Below are positions 3,846 to 8,865 of a stretch of DNA of 52,616 nucleotides, one piece after another. This DNA comes from a phage. A model generated the notes under the pieces. It was not told where the DNA came from. It saw nothing but the letters and a program-made list of their open reading frames with translations, and did no database searches. The number at the start of each line of letters is the position of its first letter. Within the stretch, counting starts at the first letter, position 1. The stretch lies in sequence record PZ379594.1, one strand, 5' to 3'. The position numbers were made by a program, and so were the translations under genes.

Positions 3846-4129
3846 ACAAGAATTCAATTTTGCGTTATGTTGGTAAAACAAATTACAACTTTACCAACGG
3901 TAAGAAGTATAAAATCGTCGCAGGTCGTGGTGACGGAGTTCCTCGCAACAACGGTACACTCGGTGCGTATATTCAATCTCCTTTGGGTTTTGTCGTTAAT
4001 GACGATAACCGTAATTTATCTTATCGTACATTCTCCGATAATTGGGAACTTGTGAAAGATTCTGGTGAAGTTAGTTGGTATAAACCTGAATCAAACATGG
4101 ACCCAATTCCTGTATCGAAGGTGATGTGA
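3842..4129 (+). CDS. hypothetical protein (~95 aa)
   Basis: ATG at 3842 overlapping the upstream stop (ATGA). Confidence 0.5.
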   Translation: MNKNSILRYVGKTNYNFTNGKKYKIVAGRGDGVPRNNGTLGAYIQSPLGFVVNDDNRNLSYRTFSDNWELVKDSGEVSWYKPESNMDPIPVSKVM

Positions 4130-6951: not shown

Positions 6952-7218
6952 ATGAATTATCAAGACATACCAGCAGAGATTCAGCATCACTATGCCCGTA
7001 TAGATAAGGCAAAGAAAGAATTGCATCAAATGTCTGCGCTGAATCTAAGCGATGAAGTTCGATTAAATGCTTATATGGAGGTTGGAGAAACTTCCATGAA
7101 AATTAGCTTCAATGAGAAAGAAGCTATTATGCGGACGCTTATTAAAAATAGCGAGGAAAGATTAGTAAAACTTCGTAAAATACATAGTGCATTAACTGAC
7201 ACAATGGAGAGCATATGA
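6952..7218 (+). CDS. hypothetical protein (~88 aa)
   Basis: ATG at 6952 with GGAG at 6942-6945; ATG at 6940 is an alternative. Confidence 0.45.
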
Positions 7219-7757
7219 GCACCATTATCCAAGCAATAGAAAATCTTAAGTCCTGGCGTAGAGATGAAACCTTATTGGTTCGTTTCTACACAGGCGAAAC
7301 TAATTCTGAATTTGTAGATGCGTGGATTGATGGCCTGTCTTGGCGTCACTATGATTTCGACATGCGGGATTATTTGCATGAAGAATACGGCATCGAATAC
7401 CCAAAAGATGGGACTTATGACATACTTGAATCAAGTGAAGCAGATGTAACAGAAGTTTGCTTTGCCAATGGCCTGTTCAGCATTCGCAAGTATGATAAGT
7501 TCAATGAGCTGCTTGTTGACACCGATTTGGATGTAATTCTTGCAGCATTCCGCAGTGGTGATATTGATATTTTCACTGTGAATGATTTGAACGACATGTT
7601 CATTACTCGTTGCGATTCAATTGCAGACTACTTCAAGCAAAGTGAAGCACTGGATATTCCAGACCGCCTTGCACCATATATTGATTGGGAAGCAATTGTG
7701 AAAGACTTCGGCAGCGACTATATCTTCTCTGAAGGAGTATTATTCCTAAATGTCTGA
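7215..7757 (+). CDS. acidic protein, possibly ArdA-like antirestriction (DNA mimic)
   Basis: Highly acidic; C-terminal [17 protein letters not shown] and N-terminal VDAWIDG resemble, from memory, the ArdA YIDY-AYGRDL and GAWF blocks; weak, needs profile search. Confidence 0.45.
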
Positions 7758-7986
7758 TTTAAATATCAACTCAATCAAGCCAGAAGATATTCTCTTCCAC
7801 CAGCCTCGTGGTCACTACTATCGAATTCTGTTTGCTACAAAGATTAAAACCCACTGCGGCAATTGGGTAGATGGGTTTGCTTACCAGGAAGTTAAGAAGT
7901 ATGGAAATCATACTTTCTTGGGAATTAATTCGGTAATTTACACAAGACCAAAGGAACTGTTTGATTCAGATTGGAAAGCAGTATAG
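7750..7986 (+). CDS. hypothetical protein (78 aa)
   Basis: Overlapping start; last ORF before an ~0.9 kb ORF-poor stretch. Confidence 0.45.
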   Translation: MSDLNINSIKPEDILFHQPRGHYYRILFATKIKTHCGNWVDGFAYQEVKKYGNHTFLGINSVIYTRPKELFDSDWKAV

Positions 7987-8050
7987 TTCCAGGCTGTTCC
8001 GTCGAAGTGCCAAGCGGGTTTTGTACTCGCATTGGCCTTCGGCTTAATTC

Positions 8051-8078
8051 TGAAACATTAGTAGAATTTGATTCTGAC
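8051..8078 (+). promoter_or_regulatory. conserved promoter-like motif, copy 2 (divergent: CTGAAACATTAGTAGAATTTGATTCTGA)
   Basis: Shares the 5' half AATTCTGAAACATTAGT with copy 3. Confidence 0.4.
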
Positions 8079-8190
8079 CTCTTAGGGAAGAAAGGCATTA
8101 TACACTTATCGCCAAATGGGTGTCAAGCACTTTCTTCATTTATTTAATTTTATTCTTATTATTCTTTTTGTTTGGAATATTGGAATAATT

Positions 8191-8219
8191 CTGAAACATT
8201 AGTTGGAATTGAAGAGACA
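8191..8219 (+). promoter_or_regulatory. conserved promoter-like motif, copy 3 (CTGAAACATTAGTTGGAATTGAAGAGACA)
   Basis: Intergenic; close match to the consensus. Confidence 0.5.
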
Positions 8220-8865
8220 ACATCATTGAAGTTCCTTCCATATCGTCTGGGTAGAAGCCCTGTGCACAAGGGTGGAGTGAAAGGTTCGAGTCCTTCCGAT
8301 TGCGCGAGGGAACTTCAAGATGGAATGTTTCCATCATATACATTTATCTTTTTAACATAGGCCAAAGGGCCGGAATACTTATTCGCAGAAAAGCTATTCA
8401 CTTGTTATAGGCGATGTATTGGGATGAATTGGAACTAAATAAGCAAGCTGTTAGGGCTGAATAATTAGAGGGTTATGCCTCATGCTTATGTTAGTCATTC
8501 GAAAATAGGTTTGTGCCACAAGCTGCTGGTGCTCTGAGGAAGTCGGACAAACAGGGCTTAGAGTGGCATAATCCGCACAAAACCGCGCCACCAGCTATGC
8601 CAAAGCAGGTAGGTTGGGTGAATGTATTGGGAAGGGTTACAAAGCCTCTGTGACCTCCGCAGCTTGCCAGGCTGCGGTGCAGTTATGATACGCAGGTCGC
8701 ACCCTAACGGGAGTAATCCTTCGCCAATGCAGTTATCCAGAATTGACACAAACGGTAGGCAGTGGCCCGATTTTCGGCCTTCCTGCGCTGCCCTGTGGCC
8801 TGTTTCCTGGGCCAAAAGATGAGAAGAGAAGTCACAAACACTGAATCGAAAATTGGAGAGTTCCT

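Follow-up and report, generated by a model that had tools for sequence, protein, structure and literature searches.

What does a phage keep between two genes of its early region, if not another gene? In the phage sequence PZ379594.1 (52,616 nucleotides (nt), the whole of which is referred to here as the window), the genes at 7750-7986 and 8866-9186 are separated by a gap whose longest open reading frames (ORFs) reach 85 amino acids (aa) on the minus strand and 66 aa on the plus strand. A sequence-only reading had described positions 7987-8865 as ORF-poor, with two copies of a promoter-like motif and a GC-rich downstream half carrying stable hairpins and a repeat, and had proposed that the region could encode a non-coding RNA or act as a regulatory hub. 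It called for an Rfam scan and a comparison with related phages, and named a conserved gene with codon-periodic substitutions as the finding that would speak against it. Our analysis indicates that the locus is very probably a structured non-coding RNA (ncRNA) locus and not a gene. Both proposals appear to hold, each for one part: the right half reads as structured plus-strand RNA, with compensatory changes, folds shared across genera, a strong excess of G-U over A-C pairs and no coding signal, and the left half as a predicted control region, in which a hairpin resembling a terminator precedes two phage-type promoters in tandem, with a conserved sigma70 promoter on the opposite strand. Transcription of the region is something we infer from these signals.

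A conserved gap without coding signal

The comparison with related phages placed the locus in one family. A blastn search of 7700-9200 against phage records returned 51 matches at 81-97% identity, all to Chaseviridae of the subfamily Cleopatravirinae and mostly to Carltongylesvirus, among them phiEcoM-GJ1, ST32, SA91KD, Mangalitsa, MLP1 and the Yersinia PYps phages. Judged by these matches, the source phage is Carltongylesvirus-like (Chaseviridae, phiEcoM-GJ1/ST32 group). Its relatives are myoviruses of 52-56 kb, and the family encodes a T7-like single-subunit RNA polymerase (PMC12842549). A gene-free gap 3' of an ArdA-like gene and a small gene recurs in every Chaseviridae genus compared. Sabourvirus (4HA13), Faunusvirus, Loessnervirus (Aioli, Fifi44, Nougat and SSEM1) and Aeromonas phage phiA050 have the same gap, which in Proteus phage Myduc is cut down to one module (module C, described below). 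Using 8204-8865 as the query, we found positions 8319-8865 to be 85-98% identical in about 45 phages, with conservation setting in at exactly base 8319 in nearly all of them. The protein of the gene just downstream is only 33-90% identical across the same phages, and by this measure the region is conserved above its flanking proteins. The same query gave no blastn match in 5,426 complete E. coli genomes.

The conservation is not that of a protein. In an alignment of 13 Carltongylesvirus sequences of the element (alignment A1), the 192 variable ungapped columns are spread over the three frames as 71/59/62; three flanking genes aligned likewise gave 42/32/104, 9/3/23 and 39/35/67. Gaps are 1, 2 or 11 nt long in the element and 3, 6 or 9 nt long in the downstream gene. 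Because codon periodicity is lacking and these 1-, 2- and 11-nt indels break the frame among close relatives, we regard the region as non-coding. None of its ORFs is conserved in relatives, and we found in it no third-position bias and no indels in threes; its eight longest ORFs had no hits in Pfam or PHROGs. GenBank records of the relatives are inconsistent here, some annotating short coding sequences (CDS) and many annotating nothing. The conserved gene that was to speak against the sequence-only reading did not emerge.

Selection for RNA structure on the plus strand

The substitution patterns show that 8204-8865, directly downstream of a conserved phage promoter motif, is under selection for RNA secondary structure on the plus strand. 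The RNA of this segment folds with z = -4.6 relative to shuffled sequences. RNAalifold predicted 143 pairs on A1, with 98.1% of the cells paired in the consensus. Fourteen pairs are changed on both sides, compared with 6.5 +/- 1.8 in shuffled alignments (0/500) and 1-6 in slid controls, and the one-sided changes are G-U wobbles. Altogether, 224 G-U/U-G cells stand against 9 A-C/C-A cells, and the minimum free energy (MFE) is -186 kcal/mol for the plus strand and -150 kcal/mol for the minus strand, a difference of 36 kcal/mol. The G-U excess and the better plus-strand fold thus point to a plus-strand RNA as the functional molecule. Furthermore, modules C, D and E (Table 1) have identical MFE topologies in Carltongylesvirus, phiA050, Sabourvirus, Faunusvirus and Loessnervirus.

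Several features of the earlier description can be located on this structure. The promoter-like copies placed at 8051 and 8191 fall inside two exact 18-mers (Table 1). The GC content of the downstream half is indeed raised, at 54-55.5% over 8500-8799 (200-nt windows) versus 35-43% over 8000-8499 and about 40% upstream. The hairpin CCGCAGC-TTGCCAG-GCTGCGG is present at 8657-8677; it sits in the hypervariable tip of a rod, is swapped for unrelated hairpins in relatives and forms the least conserved part of the structure. The repeat TGCAGTTAT does occur, at 8678-8686 and 8728-8736, yet as a repeat it is incidental because the first copy is not conserved and the second alone is. The earlier description did not include the tRNA-like module, the modular build of the RNA, its conservation throughout the family or the poor conservation of the hairpin singled out.

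Table 1. Predicted features of the locus, from left to right.
Feature	Position	Strand	Details
Terminator-like hairpin	8001-8043	+	After gene 7750-7986; core GCCAAGCGGG...CUCGCAUUGGC at 8009-8036
Promoter-like motif P1	8045-8070	+	TAATTCTGAAACATTAGT (8045-8062) and initially transcribed AGAATTTG
Perfect sigma70 consensus promoter (predicted)	8097-8126	-	TTGACA, 18 nt, TATAAT; points left; 12/12 match
AT-rich stretch with GGAATA/TTATTC repeats	8127-8185		Ends in invariant TGGAATATTGGAATAAT just upstream of P2
Promoter-like motif P2 and conserved leader TTGGAATTGAAGAGACAACATCA	8186-8225	+	Exact 18-mer TAATTCTGAAACATTAGT at 8186-8203
tRNA-like cassette	8226-8318	+	Closing stem 13 base pairs (bp), 8226-8238 with 8306-8318; arms in tRNA order: D-like UCUGGGUAGA, 5-bp/7-nt middle arm, T-arm-like GAAAGGUUCGAGUCCUUCC (8279-8297)
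Hairpin H0	8319-8335	+	Invariant, GAUGGAAUGUUUCCAUC; sharp start of conservation with relatives
U-rich linker, invariant hairpin and variable hairpin	8336-8412	+	Invariant hairpin GGCC-AAAG-GGCC (8360-8371)
Module C, three-way junction	8413-8507	+	Core 8434-8495; helices P1 and P3 variable
Module D, stem with internal loops	8508-8574	+	GGAAG pentaloop (8538-8542)
GCCAA-loop hairpin	8591-8609	+	CCAGC-UAUGCCAAA-GCAGG
Module E, rod	8614-8740	+	Base about 26 bp (8614-8650 with 8702-8740); hypervariable branched tip ~8651-8701
Single-stranded CACAAACGG, hairpins F and G	8746-8814	+	F at ~8753-8793, G at 8796-8814
Conserved tail	8815-8865	+	GUCACAAAC (8831-8839) and ribosome-binding site (RBS) UUGGAGAGUUCC (8852-8863) of gene 8866-9186

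Modules of the large RNA

The large RNA opens with hairpin H0, which is identical in Carltongylesvirus, 4HA13 and Faunus and carries one G-U-compatible change in phiA050. H0 could form either of two alternative pairings: one with the leader (-9.8 kcal/mol) and one with the RBS at 8853-8863 (11 bp, -11.9 kcal/mol, top 1.2% of random 21-mers), the latter becoming a duplex of 12 continuous bp and -19.1 kcal/mol in the phiA050/4HA13 type. In the segment that follows H0, helix 3 has compensatory changes in 2 of its 3 pairs in A1.

Module C covaries between genera. Throughout the family there is no variation in its P2 hairpin (AGCU-GUUAG-GGCU) or junction strand (GAAUAAUUAG; GAAUAAUU), whereas P1 and P3 covary. 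An unfitted cross-genus MAFFT alignment (n=15) contains compensatory changes in 16 of the 20 pairs, with a covariation score of 0.425 versus 0.144 +/- 0.022 in shuffles (0/500). MFE alone recovered the junction in 10 of 13 sequences. Module D has the same MFE fold in 7 sequences of 4 lineages with differing stems (GCCAC/GUGGC, GCCUAU/AUAGGC, GCCAU/AUGGC and GGCUCA/UGAGCC) and GGAAG, GAAAG or GGGAG loops (GRRAG). The stem of the adjoining GCCAA-loop hairpin also covaries in relatives (CCAGC/GCUGG, AGCGC/GCGCU and GCGC/GCGC), and the window copy has an A-A mismatch. In the rod of module E, A1 supports 26 pairs at 100%, and compensatory changes occur in 3 of these; MFE gives the same rod in 12 sequences from 5 lineages, as three helices split by single-nucleotide bulges, and the tip comes in at least 3 unrelated versions within the genus. 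Further downstream, helices 17-19 in the F/G segment have compensatory changes, and CAAACG and both hairpins are found in all genera. The conserved tail is invariant in 12 of 13 Carltongylesvirus sequences, and its GUCACA and AAAUUGGAGA..UUCCUAUG context is kept in phiA050, 4HA13 and Loessnervirus, even with a different first downstream gene.

The single-stranded linkers share a repeated element. ACAAAC/CACAAA has 6 overlapping matches there versus 0.64 expected (positions include 8547, 8576, 8747 and 8833) and could be a binding motif or take part in alternative pairing. CACAAAC itself occurs in two exact copies, each complementary to GUUUGUG, which is invariant at 8509-8515. A long-range pairing of GUUUGUG with CACAAAC at 8747-8753 or 8833-8839 was set aside because, in the local pairing, the window and phiA050 differ by at least one compensatory change.

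The modules also differ in distribution. Between D and E, 4HA13 and the metagenomic locus L053 carry an extra covarying module of about 130 nt that is absent from the window; it spans 1640-1790 in the 4HA13 locus (L009), with closing stem UUGCUCUUAUAG/CUAUAAGGGUAAUU, and ~1435-1290 on the minus strand of L053, with closing stem AUUGCCCUUAUCG/GAUAAGGGCAAUU. Loessnervirus is without module D, and its 5' strand of rod E coincides exactly with a promoter-like GCATTAGTTGGATGTGA; contig L024 has a promoter-like motif and then an apparently coding stretch after module C. In Myduc, module C stands alone, 25 nt upstream of the RBS of another gene. Solo copies in the 5' untranslated regions (UTRs) of unrelated genes lie at 3890-3960 of the Myduc locus (L033) and at 2610-2680 of L030, an unassigned 51.8-kb viral contig for which blastn against GenBank phages gave no match. 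Because module C occurs alone before unrelated genes, its junction suggests an independent, portable RNA motif. Scans of sequence collections with a module-C motif pattern of 17 specified bases found 16 loci in viral contigs, mostly Chaseviridae; the 232 matches in metagenomes (120) and bacterial genomes (112) are essentially at chance level, the pattern being too degenerate there. Only the metagenomic loci L053 and L060, both phage-like, proved homologous when the 232 matches were followed up by blastn.

An exchangeable tRNA-like cassette

Between P2 and H0, every relative carries the conserved leader GGAAUUGAAGAAACAACAUC and, after it, a small structured RNA whose closing stem of 12-15 bp is extended by CAUC...GAUG. 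At least 4 sequence versions of this cassette contain a T-arm-like hairpin with a UUCGANU loop, and the GJ1, TH37 and 4HA13 versions fold as a cloverleaf by MFE. Our definition of the Chaseviridae cloverleaf cassette asks for CAUC...GAUG on either side of a long closing stem, for a D-like NCUNGGUAGN and a hairpin in the middle, and for a variable loop of 5 nt and a T arm of 5-6 bp with a UUCGANU loop; all of these motifs are present in the right order at 8221-8322. The version in the window is common only to phage BSBP01 and is identical there, so that the two count as one independent sequence.

On these motifs the cassette can be called tRNA-like, with caveats, and not a tRNA gene. A cloverleaf was rejected as the minimum-energy fold of the window cassette, at -30.2 versus -40.9 kcal/mol (10.7 kcal/mol above the MFE). 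A covariance model built from the other versions had 8221-8322 as its only window match below E 0.01, with 22.3 bits, a score dominated by the stem; non-cloverleaf cassettes and reverse strands score 27-30 bits with the same model, which does not discriminate because the long stem dominates the score. ARAGORN called no tRNA in the region at its default, 95% or 80% thresholds, and an E-value-threshold Rfam scan of 7900-8950 gave no tRNA (RF00005) match. A tRNA gene was also rejected on the 13-bp closing stem and on the middle-arm loop GUGCACA, which has C at position 37, where a tRNA has a purine. The likeness to canonical phage tRNA genes and to T4-type stable RNAs of tRNA clusters lies in the T-loop UUCGAGU, a GG-containing D-like loop and a four-way junction, and the genome also has a 95-nt tRNA at 11962-12056. 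The cassette differs in its closing stem of 12-13 bp instead of 7, its lack of the linker nucleotides 8-9 and of a 3' CCA context, and an 'anticodon' arm that varies in length and loop.

Y RNAs such as YrlA also mimic tRNA and are found in some phages, with the T arm of YrlA preceding its D arm (PMC4201824). As in these RNAs, the 5' and 3' ends pair in a long stem, which closes a domain with T-arm and D-arm features. However, the long stem of YrlA occupies the anticodon-stem position, whereas the cassette has the order D, middle, T, and its long stem takes the acceptor position. The Rfam scan of 7900-8950 gave no Y RNA match, the GNCGAAN0-1G motif was not noticed, and the neighbours scanned with Pfam or PHROGs have no Ro60/TROVE domain.

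Elsewhere in the family, phiA050 has a pseudoknot-type module at the same site, and Pel53 and Faunus have one of the GGAGGAGG type. An additional cassette, provided with a leader copy and a promoter-like CATTAGT motif of its own, is found in some phages; it holds either the pseudoknot-type module, as in SA91KD and others, or an ORF, which is small and zinc-ribbon-like or of another kind. The pseudoknot-type cassette, absent from the window, has the core GGAGUCCAC-UGCA..UGCAG-...CAAGUCUGGACAACUUGG within a long covarying stem and stands at or adjoining the tRNA-like cassette position in several relatives: SA91KD (L001 2019-2150), phiA050 (L007 2250-2338) and SSEM1 (L021 ~1870-1975).

Predicted transcription signals upstream of the RNA

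The left part of the region, 7987-8203, has a layout that fits a boundary between transcription units. Positions 7987-8050, which hold the terminator-like hairpin, have an MFE of -27.5 kcal/mol, and the homologous hairpin site is annotated as a rho-independent terminator in the SA91KD record; a simple terminator scan made no call at 8009-8036 because the T-run is weak. The 18-mer TAATTCTGAAACATTAGT of P1 and P2 has 2 exact copies and one 3-mismatch copy (at 10169), with 0.08 expected by chance, and 3 matches were reached in 0 of 100 shuffles. Records of relatives (SA91KD, phiEcoM-GJ1) annotate both sites as putative phiEcoM-GJ1-type phage promoters. Their spacing of 141 bp is kept in all Carltongylesvirus, and the P2 leader is conserved in all genera and duplicated before every cassette. 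The phiEcoM-GJ1-type motif (around ACATTAGTTGGA) has two copies in the region, and the window holds 7 CATTAGTTG copies, all on the plus strand. Besides P1 and P2, copies of the CATTAGTTG type lie at 759, 4288, 6573, 9411, 10169, 18366 and 52535; none of them is on the minus strand, and most fall within the first 10 kb. No such motif was seen before the large genes between 19 and 52 kb of the window, which is unexpected if the motif is the sole promoter of the phage RNA polymerase.

Between P1 and P2 lies a probable antisense sigma70 promoter (8126-8097). Both hexamers are invariant in Carltongylesvirus, phiA050, 4HA13 and Faunus, and the 17-18 nt spacer has diverged. Invariant hexamers around a diverging spacer are the signature of a promoter in use; in Loessnervirus, however, the hexamers are only about 8 nt apart, so the function is not certain. 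The spacer is an inverted repeat that would form a plus-strand hairpin at 8102-8123 with G-U pairs. The 110 nt after the -35 hexamer are 72-79% AT and contain 3-5 GGAAT and 1-4 TTATTC copies in every genus checked.

Comparison with known RNAs

Rfam 15 at gathering thresholds returned no hits in the window or in 10 related loci. Extending the search of 7900-8950 to E-values up to 10 produced weak, unrelated matches (30_255, CrcZ and HSR-omega_2) and nothing meaningful. There was no covariance-model match to ROOL, GOLLD, OLE, raiA, HEARO or other large ncRNA families of Rfam, nor any Rfam match to RNase P RNA, group I/II introns, known ribozymes or riboswitches; the flanking genes are complete. 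ARAGORN detected no tmRNA in the window and 17 loci, and there was no Rfam tmRNA hit. Readings of GAGGAAGUCGGAC as RNase P P4-like or sarcin-ricin-like were dropped as loose resemblances that no model score supported, and a group I intron, a retron, a CRISPR-type RNA, a CsrB-like GGA sponge and a 6S-like RNA were dropped likewise for want of model support.

Module C recalls riboswitches with a purine-type three-way junction in its variable P1 and P3, its strictly conserved junction and hairpin and its position in a 5' UTR. In contrast to these, it conserves one whole hairpin and one junction strand rather than a closed pocket with a loop-loop contact, matches no Rfam riboswitch, and has no evident ligand, expression platform or terminator.

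By all of these searches the RNA matches no described family. The papers examined on ST32, 4HA13 and Tiny and the ICTV profile of the family do not mention the region. We consider the locus, as delimited by sequence comparison, an undescribed, family-wide, multi-module one, individual modules of which may stand unnamed in the catalogue of 10,006 candidate viral RNAs.

Possible roles of the locus

Early transcripts of T7 (R sites) and lambda (N leader) carry long irregular hairpins, are processed by RNase III and can hide or expose a downstream RBS. We favor a cis-acting, processed leader in this style, to which we assign a probability of roughly 0.4. Early transcription arriving from the left would stop at the hairpin near 8009-8036, and P1 and P2, presumably read by the T7-like phage RNA polymerase, would start a new transcription unit. 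The P2 transcript would begin with the exchangeable small structured cassette, tRNA-like here, whose own long stem is extended by the CAUC/GAUG flanks. After the cassette would come a leader of about 550 nt, built from modules that each fold independently, and it would end at the Shine-Dalgarno sequence of gene 8866. The cassette stem, the ~26-bp rod of module E and the tRNA-like fold could serve as entry sites for host RNases, with RNase III and RNase P/E as candidates. H0 may pair with the RBS about 530 nt downstream, so that folding or cleavage of the leader would set the translation and stability of the downstream operon, and released modules may persist as stable small RNAs.

Such a leader is favored because the element always abuts the same RBS context, even before a different first gene, because H0 is complementary to the RBS, and because module C elsewhere (Myduc) is also in a 5' UTR. 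RNase entry is favored because a conserved rod base with a tip free to vary is tolerable for a double-strand-specific processing site. The T7 and lambda leaders share with the locus long irregular hairpins in early transcripts and possible RBS sequestration, and T7 a similar RNA polymerase (PMC12842549). The T7 sites are, however, single hairpins of ~60 nt between genes, whereas here ~550 nt contain several junctions and hairpins with loops conserved at the nucleotide level.

Several observations weigh against a processed leader. The core loops and junctions are conserved far beyond what an RNase III site normally needs. In phiEcoM-GJ1, an ORF of 133 aa that belongs to no known family takes the place of the 3' half of module C and of D and E, so expression of the downstream genes does not need the core in that phage. 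The promoter-like motifs that lie between modules in Loessnervirus and L024, together with the apparently coding stretch in L024, suggest that at least some modules are independent transcripts. H0, the leader and the RBS are all invariant and give the proposed long-range pairings no covariation, and P1 and P2 stand as motif-level calls because the ICTV profile has the promoters of Chaseviridae as not yet identified (PMC12842549). Finally, the Chaseviridae literature examined contains no expression, 5'/3'-end or cleavage data.

The main rival, which we consider possible but doubtful, is that the locus produces a large ornate RNA, or a set of small RNAs, acting in trans in host takeover or anti-defence. 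The modules would then bind or mimic a host factor (tRNA-handling enzymes, the ribosome, RNA polymerase or a defence nuclease), or the RNA would form an RNA-only particle like those of ROOL and GOLLD, with the tRNA-like cassette as partner or decoy. ROOL and GOLLD are phage or prophage RNAs of 580-800+ nt that covary, often adjoin tRNA genes, are non-essential where tested and have no known function (PMC12286853). The locus parallels them in its size (~550-660 nt), phage origin, tRNA-like neighbor and dispensability, GJ1 doing without the core, and GOLLD, too, has a conserved 3' part and a variable 5' part. Loops and junction strands that stay invariant across genera with strongly diverged proteins also fit a role in trans, as do the 6 ACAAAC/CACAAA copies in the single-stranded linkers, the promoter-like motif that some modules have to themselves in Loessnervirus and the exchange of unrelated cassettes (cloverleaf, pseudoknot and GGAGGAGG type) at one site in the manner of accessory genes. 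Neighboring genes point the same way, since Pfam and PHROGs scans identified host-takeover functions in an ArdA-like anti-restriction gene (7215-7757) and a superinfection immunity gene.

Against this, there is no terminator between the RNA and the following gene, whose RBS accompanies the element in every case. In some lineages modules are rearranged, lost, or split by promoter-like motifs or, in L024, by apparently coding sequence, and a single global fold is thus unlikely to be obligatory. Even with E-values up to 10 Rfam gives no similarity to ROOL, GOLLD, Y RNA or 6S. The hosts differ as well (Lactobacillales and rumen bacteria for ROOL/GOLLD, enterobacteria and Aeromonas here), and in the present locus modules are shuffled between lineages and the RNA runs straight into an RBS. 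We put forward tentatively that the RNA at 8319-8865 and its exchangeable tRNA-like or pseudoknot cassettes represent large ornate phage RNAs of a new class, comparable in function to ROOL and GOLLD, and would act in trans as an assembly of RNA alone or as a ribonucleoprotein in host takeover or counter-defence.

The primary origin of T7 has two promoters, phi1.1A and phi1.1B, followed by an AT-rich segment. An improbable alternative to the processed leader is a replication origin of this kind, where a structured G-rich transcript or the short leftward sigma70 transcript would prime DNA synthesis through a persistent RNA-DNA hybrid. The layout is similar: in the early region of a phage with a T7-like RNA polymerase, two promoters lie in tandem at a distance of 141 bp and flank a repeat region of 72-79% AT that is conserved in every genus, and a perfect, conserved host promoter faces left. 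Here, however, the AT-rich region is between the promoters and not after them, and a conserved antisense sigma70 promoter sets the locus apart. The GC skew of +0.15-0.21 over 8300-8700 gives no local signal, since all of the 5-12 kb profile has positive skew. The compensatory changes and the tolerance of G-U pairs reflect selection on RNA helices, including stems far from the unwinding element, and GJ1 is viable without the RNA core. An origin may hold for 8045-8203 without explaining 8204-8865 or its covariation.

A reading of the region as coding for at least one small protein, in line with several GenBank records, is hardly credible: ORFs of 46-85 aa are present on both strands and CDS are annotated in relatives (four hypothetical CDS in BSBP01, Mangalitsa_028, and ORF026/027 of PYps phages), but codon periodicity is absent from A1, the indels break the frame, Pfam and PHROGs give no hits, and the records disagree with one another.

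Significance of the locus

Whatever its mode of action, the locus is, as far as comparative analysis can tell, a non-coding control and RNA locus characteristic of Chaseviridae phages. Few RNAs are as poorly understood as the large structured phage RNAs of the ROOL/GOLLD type, in part because their hosts are difficult to handle. The present locus offers comparable size and complexity and a tRNA-like companion, and it is found in lytic phages for which laboratory E. coli K-12 can serve as host, phage flopper being an example; phages with the RNA infect E. coli, Yersinia, Erwinia, Aeromonas and Proteus. The phiEcoM-GJ1 deletion and the cassettes and tips swapped among relatives provide natural mutants. 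For the early region of a Chaseviridae phage, the predicted terminator, two phage-type promoters and antisense host promoter are the first transcription signals to be mapped concretely, and the spurious small CDS annotated across the RNA in several GenBank records could be corrected.

Neighboring features and database records

Homologues of the ArdA-like gene are labelled 'tail fiber protein' in PYps23T, MLP1 and PYps3T and 'replication inhibitor protein' in Pel53; both labels are probably annotation errors. The Pel53 record (PP952070.1, 'Staphylococcus phage Pel53', labelled Staphylococcus hyicus) is 87% identical to E. coli Chaseviridae across the locus, and its Staphylococcus host assignment looks doubtful. 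Downstream of the locus, an HNH homing-endonuclease ORF at 10728-11186 (Pfam HNH_3, PHROG 99) is one among several mobile insertions that differ between relatives in the early region. A second ORF-free, GC-rich stretch at 11716-12085 contains the tRNA at 11962-12056, an odd one with a D-loop insertion of ~23 nt that ARAGORN missed at default settings and reported as 'tRNA-???' only at relaxed thresholds. A homologous 95-bp tRNA-Arg was reported in the ST32 paper, and the 240 nt upstream of the tRNA look structured.

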